Shown: positions 3,143 to 61,085 of the stretch, one piece after another
How positions within the stretch are numbered: the stretch's first letter is position 1
Layout: every line of letters begins with the position of its first letter
DNA from: Candidatus Jordarchaeales archaeon
GTDB taxonomy: Archaea > Asgardarchaeota > Jordiarchaeia > Jordiarchaeales > Freyrarchaeaceae
Length of the DNA stretch: 64,000 bases
Assembly (NCBI GenBank): GCA_038858525.1
Contig: JAWCFL010000001.1
Span: forward strand, 2,053-66,052
Reading direction: 5' to 3'
Made by a program: the position numbers and the translations under genes
Notes under the pieces: model-generated
What the model was told of the DNA's origin: nothing
Seen by the model: the letters and a program-made list of their open reading frames with translations, nothing else
The model's database searches: none

Positions 3143-4915
3143 ATGATAAAGGGGGGGCGCCTCAACATGTTGTTTTCAAAAATAGCGGATTTCTATGAGA
3201 AAATAGAGGCTACAACGAAACGGCTAGAAATGATAGACCTCCTTGTTAACCTTTTCTCGGAAACTCCGCGAGATATAATCGACAAGGTGGTTTATCTAAC
3301 TACGGGTAGGCTCTACCCGTTATTTGTTCCAGTAGAGCTAGGGGTATCTGAGAAACTGGCTATGAGGAGTATTGCCATGGTTGCCGGCGTCTCTCCTAAG
3401 GAAGTAGAAGGTGCCCTTAAGGAGACAGGCGACTTAGGATTGGTTGCTGAGGCATTTATGAAAAAGAAGAGACAGGCATCCCTGTTTCATAAGCCATTAA
3501 CTGTTGAGACAGTTTATGAGACGCTGGATAAGATAGCGAGGGAGAGCGGAGAGGGCTCGGTGGAAGCAAAATTAAAACATCTTTCTAAGCTATTACTTGA
3601 CGGCACACCTAAGGAAGACAAATACATTATAAGGATAGTTATTGGTACACTCCGCCTTGGCATAGCAGATTACACCATTCTTGATGCACTGGCTGTGGCG
3701 TTTACTGGATCAAGAGATAATAGACCGGTTCTTGAAAGAGCATACAATATAACTTCAGACTTAGGATTAGTAGCTAAAGTGGCTGCAACCGAGGGGCTTG
3801 AATCTCTTCGAAACTTTAAGGTCACCGTTGGAAAACCGGTCAGAATGATGCTTGCACAAAGAGCCTCATCACCGGAAGAGATTTTGGAGCGTATGGGTGG
3901 TCGTTGTTCAGCTGAATATAAACTCGATGGGGAACGAATGCAGATTCACAAGGACGGGGACAAAGTAGACATTTTCTCCAGAAGACTTGAAAACATAACA
4001 TACCAGTATCCTGACATAGTCAAGCTTATAGTGGAAAACCTGACTGTGAAAAGAGCAATAATTGAGGGAGAATGCGTAGCCATAAACCCTGACACTGGGG
4101 AAATGCTACCTTTCCAACAATTGATGAGAAGGAGAAGAGTTTATGGAATTGAGGAGGCAATGGAGAAGTATCCAGCCATGATATATCTTTTTGATGCACT
4201 TTTAATCGAGGACGAGGATCTTACAGGAAAACCTTATCCTGAACGCAGAAGAAGACTTGCAGAAATAACGCGTGAAAACGAGCGAATAAAACTGGTTAAA
4301 GCTGAGATTCTTGATAACGTAGAGGCAATAGAGAGATTTTTCGACGCCGCGGTTGAGGATGGTTGCGAGGGCATAATGGCAAAATCAATCCAACAAGACT
4401 CAATATATGAAGCGGGGAGCAGAGGATACAAGTGGCTTAAATTTAAGCGGGAGTATAAAACAGAGATGACTGACACAATAGATGCGGTCATAGTGGGGGC
4501 TTATATGGGTAAAGGAAGACGAGCCGGGTCATATGGAGCACTGCTAGTTGCCGTCTATGATGATGACTCGGATACCTTTAAGACGATTTGTAAGGTTGGA
4601 ACTGGGTTTAGCGATGAAGAGCTGGAAAGCCTTCCAGAGATGCTTAAACCGTACCAGATGGCGCATAAGCATCCAAGGGTGGATTCGAAGCTAAAAGCAG
4701 ACGTTTGGTTTACTCCCGCTAAGGTCATTGAAATAATTGGAGCTGAGTTGACGGTAAGCCAAGTGCACACTTGCGCTTTGGGATACGTTAAGGAAGACAG
4801 CGGGATAGCTATTAGATTTCCAAGGTTTACTGGCAAATGGAGAGACGACAAGGGGCCAGAAGAGGCGACAACGGTGAGAGAAATAATCGAAATGTATGAG
4901 CAACAGAAAAAATAA
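3143..4915 (+). CDS. lig: ATP-dependent DNA ligase
   Basis: 590 aa; adenylation motif AEYKLDGERMQIH (KxDG), OB-fold C-terminus, typical N-terminus MLFSKIADFYEKIE (the true start may be the M at 3167). Confidence 0.93.
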   Translation: MIKGGRLNMLFSKIADFYEKIEATTKRLEMIDLLVNLFSETPRDIIDKVVYLTTGRLYPLFVPVELGVSEKLAMRSIAMVAGVSPKEVEGALKETGDLGLVAEAFMKKKRQASLFHKPLTVETVYETLDKIARESGEGSVEAKLKHLSKLLLDGTPKEDKYIIRIVIGTLRLGIADYTILDALAVAFTGSRDNRPVLERAYNITSDLGLVAKVAATEGLESLRNFKVTVGKPVRMMLAQRASSPEEILERMGGRCSAEYKLDGERMQIHKDGDKVDIFSRRLENITYQYPDIVKLIVENLTVKRAIIEGECVAINPDTGEMLPFQQLMRRRRVYGIEEAMEKYPAMIYLFDALLIEDEDLTGKPYPERRRRLAEITRENERIKLVKAEILDNVEAIERFFDAAVEDGCEGIMAKSIQQDSIYEAGSRGYKWLKFKREYKTEMTDTIDAVIVGAYMGKGRRAGSYGALLVAVYDDDSDTFKTICKVGTGFSDEELESLPEMLKPYQMAHKHPRVDSKLKADVWFTPAKVIEIIGAELTVSQVHTCALGYVKEDSGIAIRFPRFTGKWRDDKGPEEATTVREIIEMYEQQKK

Positions 4916-5085
4916 GTGAAGGAAGGAATCTAAAGTAATATAAGTATTTTTGATTAATGCATAAGTTTGTTAAGTTTTTAAAAAATAGGAGAGGAGTATG
5001 TGATTATGTGTTGCAAAAATTTTTAATAGCGTTAAAGATATAACTATTAGGGGAACAGTTTTTTTATTGAAACTCATGTAAGAGG

Positions 5086-5490
5086 TTGTTAGCTTTGTCC
5101 GTCGAACAAATAATTGCCGTTATAAATGAGCTTATTTCAGCCAATGAAAACGTAACTGCGGCAGCAGTTCTGACGAACGATGGACGTGTAATATATCAAA
5201 CGGAAAATTGGGACGTTAGAGGGGACGCTACGAGCTTAATTTCTGCTTGGAGGGAAAAGGCGCCAGCAATATCAGTTCAAGGCATCAAGTACTCTGTTCT
5301 CCAATCGACCGAGGAAAGACTTGTTGCAACAAACGTAAGCGGACTTGGACATATAATAATGGCGACAATACAGTACCGCGGCGTTCTGTTGGCATATGTG
5401 TCGCCTCAAGGCGATACTGGCGGAAGTTACGTGGATGTTAGCCGGGCAGCCATGAGACTTGTTCCAGTACTTCAAGCCATGGGTTACTAA
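5086..5490 (+). CDS. Roadblock/LC7 (MglB-like) domain protein, TTG start
   Basis: 134 aa; pattern ...VTAAAVLTNDGRVIYQ...RLVATNVSGLGHIIMA...GVLLAYVSPQ typical of the Roadblock/LC7 fold. Confidence 0.6.
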   Translation: MLALSVEQIIAVINELISANENVTAAAVLTNDGRVIYQTENWDVRGDATSLISAWREKAPAISVQGIKYSVLQSTEERLVATNVSGLGHIIMATIQYRGVLLAYVSPQGDTGGSYVDVSRAAMRLVPVLQAMGY

Positions 5491-5529
5491 ACACGAATTA
5501 AAGTTTAACCTTCTTTCTCTTTTCTTCTA

Positions 5530-6207
5530 CTAATAGATTCTCCTGATCAATCGCACTTCTTCACTTTCCAAATCGTAATCTACAAGTTTGGCGTTAACTA
5601 AGTCATGGATGCTTTTTAAGATCACTGCTGGCTGGAAGCCGGCGGCTTCAGTTATTTCTTTACGTTTCATAATGTTTTTAGCCCCATGAAGTAGATATAG
5701 GATTTTAGCGTGAGGCTGCCCGCCGAAAACGTCCTCAAGCAGTGTGATGTAGATCGAGAGAAGCTGTCTTACATCTTCAATTTCTTCTTTCTCCTTAGTT
5801 ATCTCTCGGTACATTTTTGATATTCTTGAAAGCTGCTCTCTTATCGAGTTTAGCTCCTCTTCAAGCTTGTTCTTCTCTTTCAAAACTCTAGTTAGTTCTT
5901 CATCTTTTGTAGCTACTGCTTCTTTAGCCGCCTCTAATGCTTTTTCTGTTTTTGCCAGATTTTCCTTAACAATTTCAACCTCTTTTTGCAGTCCATCAAT
6001 ATCTAACTTCATTTTGTTCGATTCTTCTTCTTTAGTTTTTAACATATAATTAAGCCGGCTTATTTCCATATTTTTCTCTTCTATTTCCCTCTCTCTCGAC
6101 GCTAGAACTCGCGTTATCTCAGCTACTTTATGAGTAATAGACTCCATTCTCCCGCAGATTTCTTTTAGTAAAGCATTAACGTCACTCATCTCCTCCATTA
6201 TTCCCAT
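5530..6207 (-). CDS. Coiled-coil protein with C-terminal winged-helix domain
   Basis: 225 aa; about 150 residues of heptad-rich, Lys/Glu-rich sequence, followed by ...PHAKILYLLHGAKNIMKRKEITEAAGFQPAVILKSIHDLVNAKLV (wHTH-like). Confidence 0.55.
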   Translation of the reverse strand: MGIMEEMSDVNALLKEICGRMESITHKVAEITRVLASREREIEEKNMEISRLNYMLKTKEEESNKMKLDIDGLQKEVEIVKENLAKTEKALEAAKEAVATKDEELTRVLKEKNKLEEELNSIREQLSRISKMYREITKEKEEIEDVRQLLSIYITLLEDVFGGQPHAKILYLLHGAKNIMKRKEITEAAGFQPAVILKSIHDLVNAKLVDYDLESEEVRLIRRIY

Positions 6208-6341
6208 GGATTCCCCTCCTGAGGACTTTTCATGACCACTATTTTCTTTTTAGAGAATCACGTATTAACTCTTTTCGAAATTTTTAAAGGGATTTTAATG
6301 CTTAGGAACGATCAGAGAAATACGATAGGCTGGGGGGCACG

Positions 6342-7256
6342 ATGGAGGATAGCATAAGAGAGGTTATGGAGAAAGTAATCGGGGAAAGTATTCAGAGAAG
6401 CATAGAGCCGTTTATGCGTGCACTGCTTAAAAGCATCAAATTAGTTAAGGACGAAATTGATTCCATAGGAGGCGAACTAGAAACATACTCCAAAGAATCC
6501 TCAGGCCGTCTAAGTGACCTTTCAAAGATTCTCCAATCGATCTATGAGCGCATACAAGAGCTTAAAGCAGCACAAGGTGAAAGGGAACTACAACTATCGA
6601 TGGTCTCATCCTTAAGTCAGCAAGGAGATTTAGAAGCTATAATTGAACGAAAAGTTAAGGCGATTATTGAGCCTATAGGAAGGGCTATGCAGAAAATTTT
6701 AGACCAACAAATTGCATTATTAGATAATATTGAAAAGGTAATCGAGACATTAAAGAATATTGAAGAAAAAAGCGGTTTCGGATCTAAATTGATTTCAGGA
6801 GCTCTTTCATTACCTTTAGCGGAAGAACGCGAGGAGAGTAAAACAGAGGAAGACACAACTGTAGATAACTCCAAAGGAGTTCTTTTTTCCCAGTTAGAAG
6901 AAGCCGTAAAAAGTCTTTCAGGAGAAATGAAGATTGTAGAAGCTAAAGAAGGAGAAACTTTGGAACTTAAGGAGAGCGGCGTTGATATAAAAAAGGAAGT
7001 TGAAGAAGAGATTACGGAAGAAGGCGCAGCGGCATTTGAGCAGGCTTCAAAGGAGACGCCTACGGTCGTTGAAGAGCTAACACTTGACAAGTTACAAGAA
7101 AGAGTGGCAGAGATAGATAGAGAGATAACAGATCTGACTTTTGATAGAATGAGAGGAATTTTAAGTGAGGCTGAATACCAAGAAAAGAAAGCTAACTTGA
7201 TGAAGGAAAAGGAGGAGTTGAAGAAGAAAATTGAAGAAGTGGCCTCTAAGGTATAA
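6342..7256 (+). CDS. Acidic coiled-coil protein (unknown function)
   Basis: 304 aa, strongly Glu/Lys-rich with heptad periodicity and no recognisable enzymatic motif. Confidence 0.5.
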   Translation: MEDSIREVMEKVIGESIQRSIEPFMRALLKSIKLVKDEIDSIGGELETYSKESSGRLSDLSKILQSIYERIQELKAAQGERELQLSMVSSLSQQGDLEAIIERKVKAIIEPIGRAMQKILDQQIALLDNIEKVIETLKNIEEKSGFGSKLISGALSLPLAEEREESKTEEDTTVDNSKGVLFSQLEEAVKSLSGEMKIVEAKEGETLELKESGVDIKKEVEEEITEEGAAAFEQASKETPTVVEELTLDKLQERVAEIDREITDLTFDRMRGILSEAEYQEKKANLMKEKEELKKKIEEVASKV

Positions 7257-7271
7257 GAGAGGAAAGGTTCT

Positions 7272-7577
7272 TTGTATTTTAAGCGGGGGGACTGCTTGGA
7301 CTTGGAGAAGCTTAAAGACGTCTGGGAGTACTACCCTACCTATTCTGTAGATAGAAGTGGTAAGAAAGTGCTGATTATACATGCCTATGCTTCCCTTAAA
7401 AATCTTGGAAAGTTTAATATTCAAAGCGAAGAGCAGATTAAGAAGTTGTGGATTTCAGCTCTTTCTAACGTCTCTTCTTTAGATAAGAAGGCGCTTAATG
7501 ATTCTCTGTTTGAGGTAAGAATTGAGGGAGGGGAAGTTGAGGTCAGAGTAGTTATTCCTCAAGACTACGTGAAATAG
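7272..7577 (+). CDS. Hypothetical small protein
   Basis: 101-aa ORF between two same-strand genes; no motif recognised. Confidence 0.35.
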   Translation: MYFKRGDCLDLEKLKDVWEYYPTYSVDRSGKKVLIIHAYASLKNLGKFNIQSEEQIKKLWISALSNVSSLDKKALNDSLFEVRIEGGEVEVRVVIPQDYVK

Positions 7578-7591
7578 CTTGAAAGGTAAGG

Positions 7592-8209
7592 GTGAGAAGG
7601 GCTTTGATTCATATGGTTTATGTTATAGATGAGAAAAGTGGGATAAACCTCCTTTTCCGAAAGTATGGGGAATTAGAAATGGATGAGGTTCTTATGTCAG
7701 GATTTCTAACTGCCATCAAACATTTCTCATCTGAATTTAAAAAGGACGAACCGGATACTATTCAAGAAATAGAGATGAAGACGTATAAAATAGTTTATGC
7801 TTCTGACAAAGGCATTCTTGTGGCTGCAGTATCAAACTATGACGACAGCACACCAATAATTAGAAAAGCGCTATTAACGCTCGCGTCTCGCTTCTCTGAG
7901 GAGTATGGAAAAATTCTTAAGAGCTGGCACGGAGATACATCAATTTTCTCAGAGTTTACCGCAGAAATTGATAAGATACTTATGGATGGACGGGTTGGAG
8001 AGGGCGTTAAGAGACCAAAGCTAAAGACCAAACTCATGACAAGCATGGTTAGAATGGGATTCATAAGCGAGAAAGCATTTAGAGTGGGTGAGTTATGTGA
8101 CGGAAAACGAACAAAGGAAACTATTGCAGATGAGCTCGGAATGCCAATTGAAGAAGTTATTGAAGCGATAAGGGAACTTGAAAGAAAAAAGCTTATAGAG
8201 TGGCGTTAA
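7592..8209 (+). CDS. Longin/roadblock-like N-terminal domain protein with C-terminal winged helix
   Basis: 205 aa (the likely start is M8 at 7613). N-terminus VYVIDEKSGINLLFRKYG...VLMSGFLTAIKHFSSEF...ILVAAVSNYDD has a longin/roadblock-like a/b pattern; C-terminus ...KRTKETIADELGMPIEEVIEAIRELERKKLIEW is wHTH-like. Confidence 0.45.
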   Translation: MRRALIHMVYVIDEKSGINLLFRKYGELEMDEVLMSGFLTAIKHFSSEFKKDEPDTIQEIEMKTYKIVYASDKGILVAAVSNYDDSTPIIRKALLTLASRFSEEYGKILKSWHGDTSIFSEFTAEIDKILMDGRVGEGVKRPKLKTKLMTSMVRMGFISEKAFRVGELCDGKRTKETIADELGMPIEEVIEAIRELERKKLIEWR

Positions 8210-8244: not shown

Positions 8245-9135
8245 TCATTCGGCTTCATACTGCACCCCGGAGGTTATTAGGACCAAAGCTACTATTACTA
8301 TTATAGGCGCGATAAAGATCGCTATTTCTCCTAGAACAGATTTAATAATAGCAGCCTGCAAAGTCCGGCCTACATAATAGGATATAAAACCGATTCCTAG
8401 AAGTAAGGCCTTTCGTCTTATAACACCTACACTATTCCAAGCTACATAGAAAAATAGCAAAGGTATAAAGACTGAATATAATGAAGCTAAGACATAGTTT
8501 ATGGTTAAATATATTGCTCCGCTTGGCTGATATGTAATGACCCATTTTGTTGGAAACAAGGGGCTGAACGGATCAAAGCCAAGCCAGAACAGCGCTTCAT
8601 AACCGTCTATTTGGATTTGTGGTATAAAGAAGGGGATTTCATTTATGTTATAACCAAAAAGAACGTCTCCTGGAAGGAAAAGTAAGGAGACGCCTGCGAA
8701 TAGTGGGGGTAAATGTAGTGTTCGCCTAAGCCATTTGTTCTCAAGCCAAACGTATGCAATTCCCAGAGATATAAATGAGACACTAAGCCATTCCCAAAAG
8801 GACGCTATACGCCAGTTTAAAGTGTTATATATAATGAGCGCTTCGACAAACGATGGATACGGAGTTGATGCGGCAGATAAGCTTAAAGTTAGAGGAATTA
8901 TTGTTGGCTTATCATAAAAGTCGTATAACAGGAAAAAAACTCTGCCTATTGCAAGAGTTATAAAGAAGAGTGCAAGCATAAGATTAAAGAAGTTCTTGTC
9001 TTTCCTCCACTTGAATAAGGCAAGATATATGAAAAGGAGGAAGTAGTATCCTATTACCGTAAACCATAACCCTATTGTAAATGTGTAAGGAATGTATTGA
9101 GCTGGAATCATTCTTCTCACATCCTTTTTCCTCAA
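8245..9135 (-). CDS. Polytopic integral membrane protein (unknown)
   Basis: 296 aa with about 8 hydrophobic spans. Confidence 0.5.
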   Translation of the reverse strand: MRKKDVRRMIPAQYIPYTFTIGLWFTVIGYYFLLFIYLALFKWRKDKNFFNLMLALFFITLAIGRVFFLLYDFYDKPTIIPLTLSLSAASTPYPSFVEALIIYNTLNWRIASFWEWLSVSFISLGIAYVWLENKWLRRTLHLPPLFAGVSLLFLPGDVLFGYNINEIPFFIPQIQIDGYEALFWLGFDPFSPLFPTKWVITYQPSGAIYLTINYVLASLYSVFIPLLFFYVAWNSVGVIRRKALLLGIGFISYYVGRTLQAAIIKSVLGEIAIFIAPIIVIVALVLITSGVQYEAE

Positions 9136-10077: not shown

Positions 10078-11355
10078 TCATAGAACTTTAGATTCCAAGT
10101 CCATTATTGCTTCTTGGAAATACCTGTAGGGTACATCTGAAGCGGCGAACAGTATTCTTCCAATTTTGTCTTTTAATGGGGCTTTTTCCGGGTATCCCCA
10201 GTCATATAATGGTTTATTAAGAAGCGCTTCTAGTCCGAGTGGAATTGTTGCTTTCGCCATAAATGAAAGGTCAGAAAGCATTTTGATGCCGTGCTTTTCC
10301 AAGTAACTTTCAGGTTCGAGGAGGCTTTCTCGCTTAAGATCATGAACTCTCTTAATTGCCGAGTCAAGATACAACTGCATTTTTTTAATTTCTTCGGTAA
10401 CGTCGCTACCCAGAATATTTCCGTATTTGTTCAGGAGACCGTCAGTTTCGTGGGAAATAGCGGATATAGGAGCTTGCCATATTATCTTCGAGAGCTTACC
10501 GAGAGCCCTTTTGACTTCATCATCGCTCGTTTCCTTCTTTAACTCACTAATTTTTCTGTCTAAATAAATAACAGAATTCAAAAAGCCGTCCAAGTCAACT
10601 TTAAGTTTTCCTTTAATTTCATCATAATCTATAAGGTAGAATTTCTGAATTTCTCGTTCTAGCGTAAAACCAAGGTATGATGAAGTTTCTCTTATAACGT
10701 TTAGTATAAAAGTTAAAAACTTCTTTAAACCAAGCTTTCCGAGGATCTTAACTAATTTTTCTCTGATTTCCTTGAACCTTAATATTTTATCCTTCCTTAC
10801 AAGGATTAGAGCATGATCTCCGGGTTTAAAGTGGAAACAGTATTCTTTAAGTGCATCGCTAAGACTGGTTTTTTCTCCCAACTTGACCGGAAAAATGGAA
10901 GGGTAACCGTGAGCCGCCGTGTTAAAACAATAGTATGTTCTTCTGTTTTCAGTTGCGGGGTAGCTGAAGATTATAACTCGCTCTAAGTCTCCTGGGTGAT
11001 GAGCTTTTCCAGAAGCCACGGTGAAGCCTTTACTATAAGACAGCATAACGTATATCGAGTATCTTTCTTCGCGCTCAACCAACCCTGGAAGATTTAGTAT
11101 GAATCCTATTCTTTCTAGTACGCTTTTCCGGTCTTTAGCCCATTCGGAAGCTAAAAGGTAGAAGCTTCGCTTCTCTATGTCGCTTGACACCATTTTGAGA
11201 AGACCAAAAGCATCACGTTTTCTAGCGTATTCGTCTAACTTGTCAAAGAGTTCAGAGATAACTTGCATGCTTTTTTTGAGTACGTATTCGCGGCTACGTT
11301 CTTCATATATTGCCACTCGCCTGGGAAGGTATACTTCAACCTCCAACCTTTGCAC
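10078..11355 (-). CDS. Hypothetical protein (425 aa, no recognised domain)
   Basis: Long ORF with good coding character and no identifiable motif. Confidence 0.5.
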   Translation of the reverse strand: MQRLEVEVYLPRRVAIYEERSREYVLKKSMQVISELFDKLDEYARKRDAFGLLKMVSSDIEKRSFYLLASEWAKDRKSVLERIGFILNLPGLVEREERYSIYVMLSYSKGFTVASGKAHHPGDLERVIIFSYPATENRRTYYCFNTAAHGYPSIFPVKLGEKTSLSDALKEYCFHFKPGDHALILVRKDKILRFKEIREKLVKILGKLGLKKFLTFILNVIRETSSYLGFTLEREIQKFYLIDYDEIKGKLKVDLDGFLNSVIYLDRKISELKKETSDDEVKRALGKLSKIIWQAPISAISHETDGLLNKYGNILGSDVTEEIKKMQLYLDSAIKRVHDLKRESLLEPESYLEKHGIKMLSDLSFMAKATIPLGLEALLNKPLYDWGYPEKAPLKDKIGRILFAASDVPYRYFQEAIMDLESKVL

Positions 11356-16117: not shown

Positions 16118-17137
16118 ATGGATGTGAGCAGATATCTGTCCTTAAAAAGCGTTACGTTATTTTACAATGGAGGCGCCTTATTAGAGTATGAGGGACAAAT
16201 TCCAGTAAAAGACGAAGACACAGTATATCTTATGCCAGTCGAAATCGAGCTAGCAGAGCATGTTTTTTCTACGTTAAATGTAAGCGACTTTGATGGGGGA
16301 GCAATAACCGGGATCATCTACCAGCCTCCTGAAGAACCAATTTATAGTTGTGATATTAAGAGTAACGATTTTATTAGATGCTTGTTGCCCAAACTTATTG
16401 GAAAAAACATTAACTTAGGACTGAAAGGTGGCGAAGCAATTTCAGGCGTACTCTTAGGGTTCGATGAAAATAAAAACGATGAAGGTAACGATGTGTTTCT
16501 AAATGTTCTTTCGTCTGACAAACTTTATCGGGTCAGTATGGTTTCCGTGGAACATATTACTTTAGGAAGAAATTACGCTCTTGAACTAAGAAGCTTTGCT
16601 AAGGGAGAGTTAAAGGCCTATGTTGGCTGGAAGCTTGACCCAGGAACCTTAGTAAAAGACAAACACTTGGTGAACGTTAAGTATTTTCAACCATTAGGAA
16701 AGGGATGGAAAACTTTCTACCACCTTTACATAACAGATGACATATGGGTTCTGATAGTTTGGTGTGAGATCGTAAACGCCACTCCGAAAGATTGGAAGGA
16801 CGTATCTATTATCCTCACAACGGGGGCACCACTTACAACAGCCACTTCTGAACAAAAAGACGGTGGGATAGTAGAGCATAAGATCAATGGCCCAGTTACT
16901 GTGCCCAAGCTTTCAAGGGTCTTAATTCCGGTATCTAAGCTCGATGTTAAAGGCGAATTACAACTTCAGATAGATAATTCAGGTAAGATGAGCATAAAAA
17001 TAAACATTACAAATGAAAGCGGGAAAGTGCTGTTGCCTGGAAAAATAACCGTGTGGAAAAACGACCGACTTTTGGGAGTAGGAGAACTGCAATTTATTAA
17101 AAAAGGAGGAACGGCATCGATCGAAATAAGAGCCTGA
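16118..17137 (+). CDS. Hypothetical protein (339 aa; beta-rich, possibly DUF4139-like C-terminus)
   Basis: Coding-like ORF; no catalytic motif. Confidence 0.45.
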   Translation: MDVSRYLSLKSVTLFYNGGALLEYEGQIPVKDEDTVYLMPVEIELAEHVFSTLNVSDFDGGAITGIIYQPPEEPIYSCDIKSNDFIRCLLPKLIGKNINLGLKGGEAISGVLLGFDENKNDEGNDVFLNVLSSDKLYRVSMVSVEHITLGRNYALELRSFAKGELKAYVGWKLDPGTLVKDKHLVNVKYFQPLGKGWKTFYHLYITDDIWVLIVWCEIVNATPKDWKDVSIILTTGAPLTTATSEQKDGGIVEHKINGPVTVPKLSRVLIPVSKLDVKGELQLQIDNSGKMSIKINITNESGKVLLPGKITVWKNDRLLGVGELQFIKKGGTASIEIRA

Positions 17138-17340: not shown

Positions 17341-18210
17341 ATGAAGGGCAAGTATGTAAAGTACTCGGATAAGGTTTTAGAATTATTTTACGGCAATAGA
17401 GACGCATCCATGTTTCTTCCACTATTGAAGTTGTTTGCGGAGCACATGGAAAGCGTCTGCGAGGCTTGTATGGAAAATAAGATGGTTTGCACACTAAGAC
17501 CCATGTGTCCTGATAGGAGATGGCTTAGTTTTCTCATAAAGATAGGGGCGCAAAAACGTGACTTACCGAGTTTCTGCTATAAAACGAGGATTAGCGAGAT
17601 TAAAGCGATCATAGAAAAATCTAGTCATATACATTTTAGTGATGCCATTCTTCAGACGGATGTCTTCCTTAATATTCTTTCAGGTGGAAGATCACGTCTT
17701 ATAGAGCCACTTAAAAACGGTGACCTTGAAGGTTTTACTGAGGGGCTTATAGCAGAGTTCAGGCGGCATATAGATGATGTTTCGTTTTTTGTTGGTGAAA
17801 ATTACATATTTGTTTTGGTGGAGGATAACATATTTCTTATCTATTTGGATGATGGGTTCGTTCTGATAAATCCCGAGGAGAAAACGTTTGATTCCATCAG
17901 TGAGTTTAATGATCTAATACTGGCGGTTAAAAATCATTACGAAATACCCATCTGGGTGGAGGAGGATTTTAAGGGGTTTCCTCGTATATTAGTGAGGGTT
18001 CCTTATAAGCCAGATGTGGAACAAGCTTTAGGCAAGTTTGTTGAAAAGGTGGCGGACAGCACGGAGCACGCAAGCTTCTTTCGTAACGATGAAAGCTTCA
18101 TATTAGAAGTTGAGTTTGGCGCTATTAATTCTTCTCTTACGTTCAAAAAAGTGCTTTCCGTGCTCCGACGTATAAGGTCTCTTTGTCAAGAAGTAACTAG
18201 AGAAAGCTAG
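17341..18210 (+). CDS. Hypothetical protein with Cys-rich N-terminus
   Basis: 289 aa; CEACMENKMVCTLRPMCPDRRW cluster near the N-terminus. Confidence 0.45.
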   Translation: MKGKYVKYSDKVLELFYGNRDASMFLPLLKLFAEHMESVCEACMENKMVCTLRPMCPDRRWLSFLIKIGAQKRDLPSFCYKTRISEIKAIIEKSSHIHFSDAILQTDVFLNILSGGRSRLIEPLKNGDLEGFTEGLIAEFRRHIDDVSFFVGENYIFVLVEDNIFLIYLDDGFVLINPEEKTFDSISEFNDLILAVKNHYEIPIWVEEDFKGFPRILVRVPYKPDVEQALGKFVEKVADSTEHASFFRNDESFILEVEFGAINSSLTFKKVLSVLRRIRSLCQEVTRES

Positions 18211-18224
18211 GTGAGGTATCAGTT

Positions 18225-21200
18225 ATGGCTAAAGACTTTGTGTCTTTGATTGCCAGTAAATTTGGTCTCAGTGAGGATGAAGCAAAAGTATATAGCTTAT
18301 TCATTCTGTATAGAATTCTTACTTTGGGGGAAATATGCTATCACACGGCTCTTCCTACTTCAAAGGTTGAGTCTATTATTCAGTCCCTTAAGGATAAAGG
18401 CCTGATATCCCATGTTCCAGGTGTAATTGAAAGATATGTAGCCGTAACTCCCTTCAGGGCGCTATCTAAAGTGGCAGGCGATTTTATAAAGACGGCAGAG
18501 GAGGCAGATGCAAAATTAAGGAAGCATTTTGAAGTTAGCAAAGCTGACATAAAGAGAGCTGTTGACTCCTTTAAGTCCAACTTGAAGGATTCCGTGACGA
18601 AAGAGCTGCAGACTCTGAGGGGAGAGGTAAATAAGGCGAGCGAGCTTTTGGAAAAACTAGTTCAACGAGAGAAAGCGGACTTAAGTGACATGATAAAAAG
18701 AGCGGAATCTTATTCCTTAGGCCAACTGGAAAGTTACAAAAGATTTAGTGAGGAGTCTTTAACTTTAGTTAAAAGTGAGGTCGAAGAAGAATTAAAAAGC
18801 GTTTTAAACGAAGTGAGAAGAGTCACTGGGCAAAGTGCTGAAAGAGCATCAAATACTCTTGCATCTATGCTAGACAATGCGAATGTTATGTTGGGAGAAA
18901 TTGAGAAAAAAGTGATAAAGGATGTTTCGAAGATAGCGGAAACGACTGCTCTGACGGCGGGCAAGATCGCCGAGAAAGTAATGGAAGCCAAAAGTGAGTA
19001 TGATTCTAAAGTAAGGGAGACTGTCGAAGTTGCTAAGGGGATTACTTCTAAAACGATAGATCTGTTGAGAAAAGAGCTGGATGAACGAGCTGGTTTAATA
19101 GAGAGAATAACGTCTGAAACAATACGAAAAAGCATAGAGAGAAGAAAGGAGCAGGATAATAAGTTAGAGAAAATATTGAGCACGTCTCTGAGAGGTTCAG
19201 CTTCAGAGATCGCTAAAAGTATTTCTTCTTTCTACACTTCGGCTTTAAGGCCTCTCTGGTCCTTAAGTAGAGAGCATGAAAAATGGATTCAAAATATTTC
19301 AGAGCGCACTAGTAAGCTTGTAGATGCAAGCATTTCGCGTCTTTCTTTCATGATTGAGGAAACGAAGGCAAAAATTGCTGAACGCATTAAATCACAGTTT
19401 GAAATTCAAGAAGAAGTATTGAGAGGATTTGGCTCAAAAGTAAGAGAGCACGTGACGTCTAGTCTTAGGGAGTTTGATGCGGCTTCTTCTTCGACTAGAG
19501 AGCGGTTCTCGTCAGTCATAATGGAGAACACAAAAGCCACTAACGAAACCTTCGAGAAAACGAGGAAAGCAGTTGAGTCACTCGTATCAGAGAACGTGGA
19601 GATTATAAGAAATATGCTGAAAAAGGTTGAAGAGGAAGTTCAGGCATCACTGGTCACAGAGAGAGAGGCCGAGGAAAAGGAGTTTTCTAAGTTTAAAGAC
19701 GCGTTTTCGTCTATGTTGGAAGTTTCTAAGCGTGAGTTGACCGAGGCAACAGGGTTAATGTCTGAAAACGCACTTAAGGAAATTTATACACGGACAACGG
19801 AATTTATAAATGAATTGAAAAAGCTGAGGGAGAAAGTTTCCGAGGCCATCGAGAAGGAATTGAAGATGGTCAGGTGGGAGGCTGAGGAGGCACGAGGAAG
19901 CATAGAGAGATTTTTGGTTCAACGTATCACCGGTATGGAGGAGTATGCAGAACGCGTAAAGCAGCAGTTGGAGAGTATGGTCAAAGAGAGGCTGGAGGAG
20001 CTGAGTATCAGTGCTGAAGCTGTCCAAGTAGGATTTGCTGAATCAATGGACAAGATATTAGACAGAGTTAGGGAGATAGTAGAGGACGCGAAGAATGGTT
20101 TTTCGGTTTTACTTTCCACGCAGCTATCTTCATTTAAGGAAAATTTAGATAAGCTTGGCATGTCATTTGCCGATGAGCTAAGCCGGCAGGTGGATGCAAC
20201 TAAAACGGAGGCAAACGAAATTCTTTCAAACTTTTCAGAGGAGCTAGAGCACAGAGTTTCAGAAGTTGAGACTTTAGCGAAGCAGATTATGGAGAACGCG
20301 GAGGCTATGTTTAAAAGACAAGAAAAAATTAGCAGGCAACTTAGAGACGTAGTTTCAACTTTCCTTGTCCAAGAAACAAAGCGATATATAGATTCTTTTT
20401 CTAATATTTTAATTTCTTTAAACGAACGCTCGGTCTCCCTCATAGAGTCGAAGATAAAGTCGTTGGAGAAGCTCAGAAACAATCTCGAAAAAGAACTTCA
20501 CTCCCTTATAGTTAGTGAGGGGGCGGCGATAGAGGAAAAAAACGCTAGTTTAAGAGAGACGGTAAACTCATATGTTTCGGAGAGATACAAGGAATACGTT
20601 GAGTCATTAGAGGGCGTTGCTAAAGAGGTTGAAGAGCTACTTCGCGAACATATTGAATATTATAAAGAGCACCTAGAGGGGCTTATAAGAGGCTTATCAG
20701 ACGCTCTTGAAGAAACTTTAGGAAGAATATCTCAGGCCTCTAACGCAGTTATAAGTGATGCAGCTACTCAATTGGATACAGAAAAGGAAGCAATTGCGGG
20801 GGAAGCAAAGATTTTAATCGAAGCTGCGAGTAAAATGCTTGATTTTTACGTTAAGAAGCTGAGGAGCAGCATTGCGGCCTCTTTAAATGATCTACTGAAG
20901 GAAGTATCAAGAAGAATAGAGAGCTTAAGGGAGGAGGGGGAAAGAGTCGAATCTTTAGTGAGGGAGGTCGTCGAGGCGGACTTTAAAGAATTTGAAGAGG
21001 CGCTCAAGAACTTAGAAGGAGCTTTAGCTTTAAATGTTAATAATGAAAAGGAAAGAACACTTTCCAGTGTTATCCAGTTAGAGTTAAAGTTACAAGATTT
21101 GCTAAACAAGGTGGGAGAGGAACTTGGCGCTTACTCAAGAGGTATACAGGAAGAAAGCAAAGGAATTTTAGATAATTACTCGAGAGAAGTAACAGGTCTT

Positions 21201-22148
21201 CTGGATGCTTCTGGTAAAGAAATTAACAGTTACCTAGAAGAAAGTAGGAAAATTTTCGGAGTAAAAACAGATGAAGTTAAAGACATGATTAATGGATTAA
21301 TGGAGGAGCTTTCAAAAGAATTAGATGAAATAATACATAGAACACGTGAAGGCATAGCTACATTAGTAAAGGGGTATCATGAAAAAATAGAACGAAATGT
21401 GGAGGAGACTAGAGCACACCTTATAAGTGAGCTTAAAACATGCATAGAAAAAGAAGAAAAAGACGTGACTAGCTTTAGTCAAAACGTAGTTGAAACGCTA
21501 TTTCGTCTAATGGAAAGTTGTGGAAAAACATTGGAGGAATTAAACAACAATGTGACATCATACTTAAGTGAGTTTTACGAGAAAGCCGCCGAACATTTAG
21601 ATGGTACAATGAAGGGAATAAGTGAAAAAGTAAGAATTCTACTTGAAGAGTTAAGAGCCGTAGAGTCAATATCTAGCTCAGCATGGGAGGAACTGGCGAA
21701 AGCCCCCCTAAGCATTGAGAAAACGTGTTTCATAGCTACGAGAGAAGTAGTAAAAACGCGGATGAGGGATATGGCAAAGCGAACTAAAAATTCATTGATA
21801 ATAGTGGCTCCCGAGCTAGGAGAACTTCCAATAGAGGAGTTATTAGGGATAGAGCCGCCAGCGAAATTGTACGTGTTCACTGATTTCGATTTACCCTCAG
21901 AGCTCAGCATTTTGAAGAGCTTAATAAGTAAGAGGAATCTCCGTTTGTGGAAAAGAAAGGAAAAAGAATTTTTCATGTGTCTACGGGACGATGAGGAAAT
22001 TCTGATTGCTCCAGTATCCAAAGAAACACCTATCTTAGCAATAGTGAGCGAAGAGCGAAGCTACATTGATTCTTACAAACGCACATTAATACCGTTTCTC
22101 AGGTCGACAGCTAAAGAAGTGAAATTGAAAGACATAGACTCTGTTTAG
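18225..22148 (+). CDS. Giant coiled-coil protein with N-terminal TrmB-type wHTH and C-terminal TrmB-C-like domain
   Basis: 1307 aa. Residues 1-80 read LSEDEAKVYSLFILYRILTLGEICYHTALPTSKVESIIQSLKDKGLISHV (TrmB-family HTH). They are followed by more than 1000 residues of uninterrupted Glu/Lys/Leu-rich heptad sequence and a 140-aa non-helical C-terminal domain. Confidence 0.7.
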   Translation: MAKDFVSLIASKFGLSEDEAKVYSLFILYRILTLGEICYHTALPTSKVESIIQSLKDKGLISHVPGVIERYVAVTPFRALSKVAGDFIKTAEEADAKLRKHFEVSKADIKRAVDSFKSNLKDSVTKELQTLRGEVNKASELLEKLVQREKADLSDMIKRAESYSLGQLESYKRFSEESLTLVKSEVEEELKSVLNEVRRVTGQSAERASNTLASMLDNANVMLGEIEKKVIKDVSKIAETTALTAGKIAEKVMEAKSEYDSKVRETVEVAKGITSKTIDLLRKELDERAGLIERITSETIRKSIERRKEQDNKLEKILSTSLRGSASEIAKSISSFYTSALRPLWSLSREHEKWIQNISERTSKLVDASISRLSFMIEETKAKIAERIKSQFEIQEEVLRGFGSKVREHVTSSLREFDAASSSTRERFSSVIMENTKATNETFEKTRKAVESLVSENVEIIRNMLKKVEEEVQASLVTEREAEEKEFSKFKDAFSSMLEVSKRELTEATGLMSENALKEIYTRTTEFINELKKLREKVSEAIEKELKMVRWEAEEARGSIERFLVQRITGMEEYAERVKQQLESMVKERLEELSISAEAVQVGFAESMDKILDRVREIVEDAKNGFSVLLSTQLSSFKENLDKLGMSFADELSRQVDATKTEANEILSNFSEELEHRVSEVETLAKQIMENAEAMFKRQEKISRQLRDVVSTFLVQETKRYIDSFSNILISLNERSVSLIESKIKSLEKLRNNLEKELHSLIVSEGAAIEEKNASLRETVNSYVSERYKEYVESLEGVAKEVEELLREHIEYYKEHLEGLIRGLSDALEETLGRISQASNAVISDAATQLDTEKEAIAGEAKILIEAASKMLDFYVKKLRSSIAASLNDLLKEVSRRIESLREEGERVESLVREVVEADFKEFEEALKNLEGALALNVNNEKERTLSSVIQLELKLQDLLNKVGEELGAYSRGIQEESKGILDNYSREVTGLLDASGKEINSYLEESRKIFGVKTDEVKDMINGLMEELSKELDEIIHRTREGIATLVKGYHEKIERNVEETRAHLISELKTCIEKEEKDVTSFSQNVVETLFRLMESCGKTLEELNNNVTSYLSEFYEKAAEHLDGTMKGISEKVRILLEELRAVESISSSAWEELAKAPLSIEKTCFIATREVVKTRMRDMAKRTKNSLIIVAPELGELPIEELLGIEPPAKLYVFTDFDLPSELSILKSLISKRNLRLWKRKEKEFFMCLRDDEEILIAPVSKETPILAIVSEERSYIDSYKRTLIPFLRSTAKEVKLKDIDSV

Positions 22149-23577: not shown

Positions 23578-23722
23578 AAGGATCCCCTCACTGATTCGCT
23601 CAAATAAAGACGCTGAATCTAAGAATTAAGAAGGAATATATAAATGCTTTTTCACATCAAAACCTCAAAAATTAAGTATCTTCACGTCTAATCATGGAAA
23701 ACAAAAATATGACGGAGGTTGG

Positions 23723-23812
23723 TGGGCGGGCCAGGATTTGAACCTGGGTCCTCCACGGTGTCAACTTCGCCTCTTCTTTGTGTGGCGTCATAACCAGCTA
23801 GACTACCCGCCC
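23723..23812 (-). tRNA. Intron-containing tRNA (anticodon unresolved; one parse gives GAC = Val)
   Basis: Reverse complement reads GGGCGGG-TA-GTCT-AGCTGGTTA-TGAC...GACCCAGGTTCAAATCCTGGCCCGCCC-A. The acceptor and T-arm are canonical; the 90-nt length implies a roughly 16-nt intron in or next to the anticodon loop. Confidence 0.65.
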
Positions 23813-40214: not shown

Positions 40215-42640
40215 TTGTCAAGGAATGAGAAAATCGTGCTCTGGTTTGAGGAGATAGGAAAGGAGGACGTTGCGCTTGTAGGCGGGAAATGCGCAAACCT
40301 TGGGGAAATGATCACAAAGGCTAAGGTGCCTGTACCTCCGGGGTTTGCGGTGACGACGTATGCATATAAACGATTCATAAAGGAGACCAAGATAATGGAC
40401 AAGATCTTCAGCAAACTCAGGGAAATTGACGTTAGAGATTTGAAGCAACTGGAAGAGGCGTCTAGAGAAATAAGGAAGCTTATTGAGGGGACTAAGGTTC
40501 CAGAAGACATACAGTCAGCTATATTAAGTGCTTATGATGATTTAGCAAGAAGAGTTGGCAGAGAGCCGCTTGTAGCTGTCCGTTCTAGCGCGTCGGCAGA
40601 GGATAGAGACAGGGTCTCCCTCTCTTGCCGGGCGCTAGTTTTGCCGGGCAGCAAGATACTTTCCTGAATGTCTCTAAAGGTGAGCTTGTAGAGAGTGTAA
40701 GGCGTTGCTGGAGTAGCCTATTTACTCCTAGAGCGATAGCATATAGAGAGGAGAAGGGGTTTAGACATGAGGACGTGTCAATAGGGGTTGCCGTTCAGGA
40801 GATGGTTGACGCGAAAGCTGCGGGAGTTATGTTTAGCATACACCCAGTTACAGGGGATAAAAACAGAATTCTTATAGAGGCCAGCTGGGGACTTGGTGAG
40901 GCCGTAGTAAGTGGGGCTGTGACCCCTGACACATACATAGTAGATAAAAAAACTTTTGAAATTCTCGAAAAACAAATTGCAACTAAAAAAGTGGAGCATA
41001 TAAGGGATCCTAAAACTGGAAAGACGATACATGTGGAGGTCCCGAAGGAGAGGCAAAACGTTCCAGCCTTAACGGATGAAGAAATAAAGGCGCTGGCGAG
41101 ATACGCCCGCCAGATAGAGCAGCATTATGGTACGCCGCAGGACATGGAGTGGGCTATTGACAAAGACGGGAGGATATTTATACTCCAAGCAAGGCCAGAA
41201 ACAGTTCACTCGACGGGATCAGCCATAGTGGAGCAACGATTAGTGGAGGAAAAGGAGGGGGAAGTGCTGGTGAGGGGATTGCCTGTTTCACCAGGAGTAG
41301 GGGCAGGGAAAGTCAAGGTAATCCTTAACGTTAAGGACATTGACAAGGTCAAAGAGGGGGATGTGCTTGTCACTAAGATGACTACACCTGACTGGGTTCC
41401 AGCCATGAAGAGGGCGGCAGCAATAGTTACGGATGAGGGAGGATACACTTGTCATGCAGCTATAGTGTCACGCGAGCTTGGCGTCCCATGTGTTGTTGGG
41501 ACTGGAAACGCGACAGAGGTGCTGGTGAATGTTGATGCTGTGACTGTTGATGGTGGAAAAGGATTAGTGTATCGCGGGATAATTAAAGCTGCTAAGGAGG
41601 AAGAATTTAGAGCTCCGGCTGTCGTTGAAGCTCAGATGATGATTCCGACTGCTACGAAGATATACGTTAACCTCTCAATACCAGAAATCGCTGATAAGGT
41701 TGCAAGGGAGACAATGGCTGATGGAGTTGGGCTTCTCAGAGCGGAGCACATGATGGTGACCATAGGCAAGCATCCTCGGAAGCTTATAGAGGAAGGTGGA
41801 GAAAACCTAATGGTTGAAAAATTCGCAGAGGGAATACGGAAAGTTGCAGAAGCGTTCTACCCGGGACCTGTAGTTTACAGGTTCTTAGACTTTAAGCCGG
41901 ACGAGTTCCTAGCCTTAGAAGGAGGGGAAAAATACGAGCTAGAGGCGGGGCACGTTGGTCCAAATCCCATGATAGGATACAGAGGCCAGTACAGGTACGT
42001 TAAGGAGCCAGATATATTCAGGTTGGAGTGCAGAGCTGTAAAGAAGGTTAGGGACGAGTTTGGGCTGAAAAACGTGTGGGTTATGGTTCCCTTTGTCAGC
42101 ACAGTAGAGGTCTTCAGAGAAGTAAAAAGGATAATGAAAGAAGAAGGGCTTGACAGGGAGAAGGATCCGGACTTTAAACTGTGGATAATGGTTGAGGTGC
42201 CAAGCAGCGTCTTTCTTATAGATAAGTTCTGCGAGGAGGGCATAGATGGGGTTTCCTTCGGCACTAACGACCTTACAATGCTGGTGCTAGGAGTTGATAG
42301 GAACGACGCAGCTGTCCAGGAACTCTACGACGAACGCAACTTAGCAGTTCTTAGAGCAATAGCGTACACGATAAAGATATGCGAAAAATATGGAGTCACT
42401 ACATCCATATGTGGGCAAGCTCCCAGTGTTTACCCAGACTACTTAGAGTTTCTAGTGAGAATGGGCGCTACCTCGATAAGTGTAAATCCAGATGCTGTGA
42501 AGCGAACACGTGAGATGGTGGCAAGAATAGAGCAGAAGATCATGATGGAAAAAGCGCTGAACGTGAAGCCCAGAATCAAAATAGGAAAAAGTTTTCTTGA
42601 AGAGGTGGCGTTCTGGAAATTGATAGACGATGAGGCATGA
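40215..42640 (+). pseudogene. ppsA: Phosphoenolpyruvate synthase interrupted by a frameshift (ORFs 40215-40667 and 40625-42640)
   Basis: The N-terminal ORF ends ...VAVRSSASAEDRDRVSLSCRALVLPGSKILS. The second frame resumes LPGASFAGQQDTFLNV, the canonical continuation of the ATP-grasp motif. The phosphohistidine domain and PEP-utilizer TIM barrel are intact. The frame shifts near 40611-40616, beside a duplicated ttgccgggc. This could be a sequencing error, a true pseudogene or recoding. Confidence 0.85.
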
Positions 42641-60314: not shown

Positions 60315-61085
60315 TTACTTTGCTAGTTCGCCGCCAGTGTATATTCGTTCTAAAGCCGCTTGGAGATTGTCGAGTCCTTCAAGTCTGGTTGAGGATACAG
60401 GTATTGGGATGTCGAACATATGGATTTTCGCTAGCGCTTCGCATATACTAAGTGACATTTCCCTTTTCATGCCTTGGGTTTCGCGCTCTATTGCTTCCAT
60501 TAGCGTGCGTGGCTCCGATACCCAATCAACGATTTTTTGAAGTTCACGGTCGGTTAGAATGTCACTTTTGGAGAGAATGTTAAGTTGAGGAAGGAAGAAG
60601 CGGTACTGTATGGATGCTCCCAGGAGCATGACGCTCACAAAGCCGTATGGTGTGCGTGCAAGAAAGGGGTCCATCAGGAAGCAAACGGCGCTTTGGGCTC
60701 CTCCAAGCGAAGACGTCACTATTGGACCGGATTCTCTGAAGGCGAAGAGTTCCAGTTGACCTGGAGTGTCTACTAGAACGTGAGTTGCACCTAGGTCGTC
60801 AATCTCCCTTTTGATTTCCTCTATAAAGTTGACCGTCATGTCAACGCACGCTACAAGCCCACCGTTAGGGCCTAGATTGAACGCGTCCATCACATCTTCT
60901 AGAACTACATATTCTCTTATATCAACATCTGGGGTGTAAGGTATGTAGCGTGCTCCTGGGTCGAGGTTTACAGTAGCTACATCTATGTTCTGTTCTCCTA
61001 ACCACTCCGAGTATACGTTTGCAAGGGTTGACTTTCCACTTCCAGCGGTTCCAACAAAAAAAGTTGTGTAGTACATTTTCCCCAC
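60315..61085 (-). CDS. GPN-loop GTPase
   Basis: 256 aa; Walker A GTAGSGKST and the diagnostic NLGPNGG motif. Confidence 0.85.
   Translation of the reverse strand: MGKMYYTTFFVGTAGSGKSTLANVYSEWLGEQNIDVATVNLDPGARYIPYTPDVDIREYVVLEDVMDAFNLGPNGGLVACVDMTVNFIEEIKREIDDLGATHVLVDTPGQLELFAFRESGPIVTSSLGGAQSAVCFLMDPFLARTPYGFVSVMLLGASIQYRFFLPQLNILSKSDILTDRELQKIVDWVSEPRTLMEAIERETQGMKREMSLSICEALAKIHMFDIPIPVSSTRLEGLDNLQAALERIYTGGELAK

Follow-up and report, generated by a model that had tools for sequence, protein, structure and literature searches.

We analysed a stretch of 64,000 nucleotides (the window) from contig JAWCFL010000001.1 of a Candidatus Jordarchaeales archaeon, in which a group of neighbouring genes, here numbered g1 to g8, includes a protein that joins a predicted longin domain to a C-terminal winged helix-turn-helix (wHTH) domain (g5) and a putative membrane protein with about seven transmembrane (TM) helices (g6). 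An earlier note on this DNA had taken g1, g2, g3 and g5 to be an unusual, undescribed arrangement that may be a polarity or regulatory module. Our results lead to a different picture, as that gene order fails outside close relatives. The cluster is no module but a place where two synteny blocks chance to meet, and only the linkage of g5 to g6 holds across Asgard lineages. From their genomic context these two genes would form the one real functional unit of the region, with g1 as an independent profilin and g2 as a member of a family tied to an Xer-type recombinase context. Taken together, we regard this reading as probable.

One of the two blocks (block A) would comprise AMP phosphorylase, DNA ligase, g1 and g2, and the other (block B) would begin with the operon g3-g4-g5 and continue with g6, g7 and g8. 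The complete order from g1 to g8 was confined to genomes and metagenome contigs at the Jordarchaeum level (L001-L004, L019, L020 and L049-L051), and in the same loci the DNA ligase, the AMP phosphorylase, a TIM-barrel enzyme and other housekeeping flanks are collinear too. Because these flanks are equally collinear, the shared order of the four genes is best read as recent common ancestry. The boundary between the blocks becomes apparent in L025, a complete chromosome from Freyarchaeia, which belong to the same class as Jordarchaeia (PMC11291895). There the block from g3 to g7 is intact (g3>g4>g5>g6<..g7>, 22-42% identity) and is followed by four other genes, then g2>, a gene of 523 amino acids (aa) and <g1. 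This puts g2 ~3.9 kb past g7 on the opposite relative strand, with the profilin/g2 block inverted and on the other side of g3-g7, and the profilin is still beside the DNA ligase, past the inserted 523-aa gene. It is this rearrangement of the profilin/g2 block against g3-g7 that resolves the cluster into two blocks.

The model of the earlier note, in which Roadblock/longin GTPase platforms, with HTH and coiled-coil proteins as partners, underlie a single polarity or regulatory module of g1, g2, g3 and g5, has several points in its favor. The four open reading frames (ORFs) are all present at the coordinates and strands the note gave, they are adjacent except that the 101-aa g4, absent from the note, intervenes between g3 and g5, and their order is kept in several Jordarchaeum-level genomes. 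Additionally, g5 does have a predicted longin domain, profilin, longin and Roadblock share a common core fold (PMC10933270), and all six genes lie within ~12 kb in Freyarchaeia. However, g1 appears to be a profilin and not a Roadblock protein, the collinearity spans the DNA ligase, AMP phosphorylase and TIM-barrel enzyme equally, the blocks are inverted and transposed in L025, the context of g2 is different in 27 loci of other classes, and g3 and g4 are absent outside the Jordarchaeia/Freyarchaeia class. The conservation of gene order in relatives stands for the Jordarchaeum-level genomes and gives way to rearrangement in L025 and to absence in other classes, and we give a single module of these genes very little credence.

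The link between g5 and g6, a gene that the earlier note does not name, was tested from both genes. Searching from g5, whose orthologues in other lineages are 31-38% identical, g6 adjoins in 3 of 5 distant loci (L013 from Hodarchaeota, L015 and L016) and is the only window gene kept beside these orthologues; no homologue of g1-g4 was found near g5 orthologues of other classes (5 loci). The g5 orthologue of L025 is also adjoined by g6. Searching from g6, by a metagenome scan with the g6 alignment, a g5 orthologue is immediately adjacent in 14 of 17 loci, and two of the three loci without g5 are truncated contigs. Most loci have the two genes convergent, L061 has them divergent, and L057 and L065 have them co-directional; their adjacency is retained down to ~31% identity. 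Staying adjacent across classes in spite of rearrangement usually marks a functional pair, and since this is seen here across classes and orientations from whichever gene the search began, g5 and g6 are likely to be such a pair. We found neither the longin-wHTH family nor its pairing with a 7-TM protein described in the searchable literature, a search that had the asCOG numbers for g5, g2 and g6 outside its scope.

No relative of g6 was found in Pfam, NCBIfam or the PDB. Consensus hydropathy and the positive-inside rule, applied to 12 homologues, predict ~7 TM helices with the N-terminus outside and the C-terminus inside, and three cytoplasmic loops rich in K/R that alternate with two long, acidic and variable outer loops.

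The structure of g5 was taken from a model based on a 30-sequence alignment (predicted local distance difference test, pLDDT, 93.1), and a 5-sequence AlphaFold2 model (pLDDT 65) was discarded. The N-domain is predicted to have the longin fold. In the model the strands and helices of the N-domain come in the order b-b-a-b-b-b-a-a, which is the longin topology, lacking an N-terminal helix and having two helices at the C-terminal end, and an HTH of three helices flanked by strands comes next. Its best fold matches are the SNARE, AP-sigma, TRAPP and Mon1 longins, and by sequence the family profile matches SYBL1 (2.7e-5), AP sigma (4.6e-5) and VAMP7 (1.5e-4), with some members reaching Clat_adaptor_s at 1.8e-6. 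The window protein alone gives Fuz_longin_1 as its best longin profile, at 17.2 bits and below the cut-off of 26.1. The longin/roadblock-like N-terminal fold and C-terminal wHTH read from the sequence by the earlier note are in this way borne out by the model and by the fold and profile matches. With a cut-off of E<=1e-3, an exhaustive search with a hidden Markov model (HMM) of the family gave 1037 cluster representatives, and with E<=1e-10 it gave 117. Many of these are ~200 aa long with both domains, and others hold the N-domain within proteins of up to 1447 aa. Prometh-, Hod-, Wukong- and Jordarchaeota are the sources of the named members, which are all labelled 'hypothetical' or 'HTH domain-containing', and the public annotation of the family is without precomputed Pfam domains. 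In longins of the GTPase-activating protein (GAP) type, namely FLCN/NPRL2/SMCR8 and their Asgard relatives, a GP motif stands at the loop before, or at the start of, beta-strand 2, beside a catalytic arginine (PMC12290439). This motif is not in the g5-family alignment, where residues 16-18 of the b1-b2 loop are S/T-G-[ILVN], which suggests a longin of the non-GAP type.

The C-domain of the model consists of helices 160-167, 175-182 and 186-198 with strands 142-144 and 202-204. The chain stops after a single beta-strand, so that the hairpin wing is missing, in the putative recognition helix the exposed residues at 187, 188, 190, 191, 194 and 195 are acidic or mixed and unconserved in the 30 members, and the conserved basic residues sit in the linker KRPKLKxK. 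For these reasons we think it more probable that the wHTH mediates protein interactions than that it binds DNA. A role of this type is known for MfpC, a DUF742 wHTH protein with guanine nucleotide exchange factor (GEF) activity (PMC11343762), and the HTH/PCI domains of Asgard longin proteins have been read as interaction modules (PMC10936438).

Several observations weigh against the picture of two abutting blocks with g5 and g6 as the functional unit. Two of the loci with a g5 orthologue, L014 and L018 (Sigynarchaeota-like), are without g6, L062 is a true exception with g6 and no g5, and the evidence that would link the two genes is all of one kind, gene neighbourhood. The sixth TM helix of g6 is weakly hydrophobic, so that there could be 6 TM helices instead of 7. 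Blocks A and B lie close together even in Freyarchaeia, and a loose functional association between them is conceivable. A g5-family paralogue is found 4-6 kb upstream of g2 in four other-class loci (L030, L034, L038 and L042), which we regard as a regional residue or chance given the large size of the family. Lastly, the C-domain of g5 has a modestly positive net charge, +1 to +5 in most members, and weakly matches TrmB, MarR and HTH_24 profiles.

This last point would suit a rival explanation in which g5 is a one-component transcription factor, its longin sensing a ligand or protein partner and its wHTH binding DNA and controlling g6 and/or the g3-g5 operon. The weak matches are to TrmB in 10 of the 30 members and include HTH_47 besides HTH_24 and MarR, PDB matches of the family include MarR/AdcR/Lrp-type regulators, the mildly basic C-domain comes with the conserved linker, and the NCBI name of g5 is 'helix-turn-helix domain-containing protein'. 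Regulator genes also often stay next to their targets while the orientation varies, which is what g5 and g6 do. We nevertheless consider this explanation unlikely. The recognition helix and the single final strand speak against DNA binding, every HTH family score is below the curated cut-offs, and the wHTH domains attached to longin/Roadblock systems (NPRL2; DUF742/MfpC) work in protein complexes. To our knowledge, longin domains do not act as small-molecule sensors.

With g5 and g6 as a functional pair, the protein encoded by g5 would form dimers through its longin domain in the manner of longin and Roadblock proteins, and could provide an adaptor or regulatory platform near the membrane, docked on g6 or under its control. 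The wHTH would then be a second interaction surface, mainly for proteins. A small GTPase with its gene elsewhere in the genome would be the probable client; Rab-like and Ras-family GTPases are on record for genomes of this class (PMC11291895). A more specific proposal is that g5 and g6 are an Asgard-wide receptor-coupled regulator of small GTPases, in which the compact 7-TM protein acts as a sensor that controls the longin-wHTH platform, which in turn acts on an Arf/Rag/Rab-like GTPase encoded elsewhere. In such a system g5 would unite in one chain the Roadblock (GAP) and DUF742-wHTH (GEF) roles of the actinobacterial conservon. We regard this receptor-coupled arrangement, with the uniting of the two roles that goes with it, as a rather improbable one.

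No Ras/Arf/Rag/MglA-like GTPase was found among the proteins of the window, and none stands beside the g5 orthologues in L013-L018. The earlier note was right that none is encoded nearby, and had set this against the role of Roadblock and longin folds as partners of small Ras-like GTPases. Asgard longin and Roadblock genes are generally outside operons with GTPases (PMC10933270), and since this is the norm the missing GTPase is not unusual. The only GTPase-like gene of the window (60315-61085, minus strand) lies ~52 kb away and encodes a GPN-loop protein (PF03029 ATP_bind_1, E=1e-57) that is not of the Ras superfamily.

Some other members of the g5 family were found in other settings. In L005-L007 from Hodarchaeota (4073-7636) the more distant longin-wHTH paralogue P0160 is two genes downstream of a 487-aa GTPase of the Arf/Gtr1_RagA type, with a transglutaminase-core gene in between; this is the sole GTPase near any g5-family member among the loci examined. 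Another longin-wHTH subfamily, with P0169 (Wukongarchaeota) and P0075 (Hodarchaeota), has a conserved position of its own near fibrillarin/Nop5 and dihydroorotate dehydrogenase genes (L008-L011), and P0169 has IS605 OrfB/TnpB-like elements all around it.

Comparison with known systems helps to place the pair. The fold comparators of g5 are the eukaryotic longins (Sec22b/VAMP7/Ykt6, the N-domains of AP sigma/mu, TRAPPC1/C4 and Mon1-Ccz1) and the crystallised Lokiarchaeal longin 8yqg. Unlike these, the longin of g5 is fused to a C-terminal wHTH and not to a SNARE motif, GTPase or DENN module, and it has a dedicated ~7-TM genomic partner, with no partner longin, TRAPP or adaptor genes nearby. NPRL2/NPRL3 of GATOR1 and the Asgard 'NPRL2-like' longins resemble g5 in having a longin followed by a small winged-helix-type domain. 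The wHTH of the g5 family aligns faintly to residues 192-236 of NPRL2 (E=0.025), and the Foldseek alignments of g5 with Npr2/NPRL2 cover ~240-250 columns. Asgard 'NPRL2-like' longins with a small C-terminal domain have been described, together with expanded longin and Roadblock families (bioRxiv 10.1101/2020.10.19.343400). The actinobacterial conservon (CvnA-D; MfpB-E) and MglA/MglB are alike in another respect, as they combine a Roadblock-superfamily platform, a wHTH-like protein (DUF742, a GEF; PMC11343762) and a membrane sensor. DUF742 matches weakly in 2 of 30 g5-family members (best E=2.6e-4). The differences are that in g5 both soluble modules are fused, that its platform is a longin and not a Roadblock domain, that its membrane partner has ~7 TM helices and is not a histidine kinase, and that there is no GTPase gene in the neighbourhood.

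Asgard profilins and the expanded longin and Roadblock families are already well known among the eukaryotic signature proteins that Asgard archaea carry, and the adjacency of the four genes is incidental. What the analysis adds is the delimitation of a widespread Asgard family (longin, basic linker and wHTH in ~200 aa) that is annotated only as hypothetical or HTH, and a testable candidate partner for it in the ~7-TM protein. Since Asgard longins seldom share an operon with a GTPase (PMC10933270), genome layout otherwise gives little help in matching them to partners. A longin tied to a polytopic membrane protein could provide a tractable entry to the coupling of longins and membranes before eukaryotic endomembranes. 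If the receptor-coupled proposal were true, g5 and g6 would make up a '7TM to longin to small GTPase' signalling axis in prokaryotes, older than the eukaryotic membrane signalling of the Ragulator/GATOR/TRAPP type.

The first gene of the cluster, g1, is a profilin as judged from sequence comparison. A phmmer search of PDB sequences matched it to the OdinProfilin/Rabbit Actin Complex (5zza_P, E=4.9e-24, residues 14-128), with further nearly full-length matches to 5zzb (4.8e-21), 5yed (4.4e-20) and 7pbh 'Profilin' (1e-17) and a weaker one to 6yrr (2e-5). The Pfam Profilin profile (PF00235) gives 24.9 bits over positions 6-101 of 127, 0.1 bit short of the cut-off of 25.0, and borderline scores of this kind are usual for Asgard profilins. 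The earlier note had called g1 a Roadblock/LC7 protein (PF03259), an assignment we rejected as Robl_LC7 reaches 13.9 bits vs a cut-off of 23 and covers only profile positions 11-43 of 91. The structural relatedness of the Roadblock and profilin folds would account for the earlier call. No profile-profile similarity was found between the g1 profilin profile and the g5 longin profile. Orthologues of g1 in L019, L020 and L025 are 60-91% identical. Alignment to the Asgard profilins (Loki profilin-1/-2, Odin and Heimdall; 5yed/5yee, 5zzb, 5zza, 7pbh and 6yrr) is near full length, and about half of the residues of g1 are identical in the alignment to Odin profilin, which has the same size. It differs from these proteins in its class of origin, Jordarchaeia, and its actin binding is predicted. 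By homology to the crystallised Asgard profilins, g1 would presumably bind actin monomers and act separately from the other genes here.

The other gene of block A that concerns us, g2, belongs to a family of 165-235 aa proteins with 39-64% identity, found in Jord-, Prometh-, Odin-, Heimdall- and Hodarchaeota. The coiled coil of the family is variable and the C-terminal module, LLSIY..LLE.VF...PHAK.LY.LHG...GF, is almost invariant. The earlier note's description of g2 as a coiled-coil protein ending in a winged helix is correct for the coiled coil, which takes up most of the length. The winged helix is plausible, from weak alignments that are in register, of the C-terminal ~75 residues to Pfam TFIIE_alpha (E=0.022) and, by hhalign, of the C-terminus to the wHTH of g5 (E=0.009); PDB sequences gave no informative relatives. 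The contexts of g2 were compared in 30 genome loci, 27 of them from Heimdall-, Hod-, Thor-, Hermod-, Prometh- and Atabeyarchaeia, and in these 27 none of g1, g3, g4, g6 or an orthologous g5 was found beside it. In 18-20 of the 27, g2 sits in a tight co-directional array, in the order 349-aa protein (of no known family), g2 and Xer-type tyrosine recombinase, where the recombinase has Phage_integrase and a SAM-like N-domain and Dph2 is divergent upstream (L028-L047, e.g. L044:8471-11632). This array is absent in Jordarchaeia, and the window holds no Xer-type recombinase and no further g2 or g5 paralogue. The ancestral context of g2 is beside an Xer-type recombinase, and there are hints of a role for the family in chromosome resolution or segregation. 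Two candidate relationships were rejected in this comparison. A 'g2-like' ORF by g5-g6 in L061 lacks the conserved C-terminal module and is only a generic coiled coil, not a g2 orthologue, and a longin-like nature of neighbour cluster 4 (338 aa) near g2 is unsupported by the g5-family HMM and Pfam.

The arrangement of g1 and g2 could also be taken to mean that block A is a small cytoskeletal unit, in which the two, possibly with the acidic g3, work together to regulate actin in Jordarchaeia. In favor of this, coiled-coil proteins are frequent partners of cytoskeletal systems, g1 and g2 converge with 39 nt between them, and in L025 g2 is still near g1 and points toward it. However, the 523-aa gene stands between the two in L025, no profilin was found within 10 kb of g2 in the 27 loci of other Asgard classes, where the Xer-type recombinase occurs instead, and the window has no actin or gelsolin gene. 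We consider such a unit highly improbable.

Judging from their spacing, g3, g4 and g5 are predicted to form an operon with g3 first. The spacers on the two sides of g4 are 15 nt (from g3) and 14 nt (to g5), and each holds a GAAAGG motif. In the intergenic region between g2 and g3, A/T-rich TATA-like boxes are seen on both strands and purine-rich motifs like Shine-Dalgarno sequences ahead of each start codon; the TATA-like boxes could act as promoters. The earlier description of g3 as an acidic coiled-coil protein agrees with its isoelectric point of 4.65, 69 D+E vs 45 K+R and heptad-rich segments. Residues 271-286 match SHOCT faintly (E=0.0049). Orthologues of g3 were found only in Jordarchaeia/Freyarchaeia loci at 22-69% identity, and the gene is fast-evolving and restricted to the class. 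The orthologues of g4 are 33-90% identical and constant in their position between g3 and g5, and g4 has no family, PDB or profile match beyond them. Profile-profile comparison gave no similarity of g4 to g1, g3 or g5, nor of g3 to g2. In Jordarchaeia/Freyarchaeia g3 and g4 may be co-transcribed, class-specific accessory subunits. The features of the cluster are collected in Table 1.

Table 1. Features of the cluster, in positions of the window.
Feature	Position	Strand	Description
g1	5086..5490	+	134 aa; predicted Asgard profilin
g2	5530..6207	-	Coiled-coil protein with wHTH-like C-terminal module; Asgard-wide family
g2-g3 divergent intergenic region	6208..6341	.	Sequence read directly
g3	6342..7256	+	Acidic 304-aa alpha-helical/coiled-coil protein with SHOCT-like C-terminal motif; gene 1 of predicted operon
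g4	7272..7577	+	101 aa, conserved; gene 2 (middle) of predicted operon
g5	7592..8209	+	Predicted longin ~5-130, basic linker KRPKLKxK 140-147, C-terminal wHTH ~150-205
g6	8245..9135	-	Predicted ~7-TM membrane protein, N-out/C-in; no known family
g8	10078-11355	-	425 aa, no Pfam match; kept in Jordarchaeia block B beside TIM-barrel gene g7

The genes g1-g6 are real and have orthologues in other genomes under amino-acid conservation. Outside the cluster the window is core chromosome of the usual archaeal kind, with DNA ligase, Cdc6, RtcB, FttA, a proteasome subunit, Dph2, enolase, topoisomerase, RadA-like proteins and others. A few features of this remainder may be mentioned. An 809-aa ORF (47142-49571, minus strand) has no Pfam match. 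The 1307-aa protein at 18225-22148 (plus strand) has an N-terminal wHTH of the TrmB type (E=5.5e-11) followed by ~1200 residues of apolipoprotein-like/coiled-coil repeats, and two ORFs without a family match (16118-17137 and 17341-18210) lie ahead of it. The only tRNA of the window (23720-23812, minus strand), for which ARAGORN gave no anticodon, probably contains an intron, because it is 90-93 nt long, and around it no ORF of at least 120 aa is found from 23.6 to 25.4 kb. A gene of the phosphoenolpyruvate synthase/pyruvate phosphate dikinase (PPDK) type is broken up between two ORFs that overlap in different frames (40215-40667 and 40625-42640, plus strand), the first with PPDK_N profile positions 2-119 and the second with positions 115-317, and this could be due to a frameshift, an assembly error or programmed recoding.

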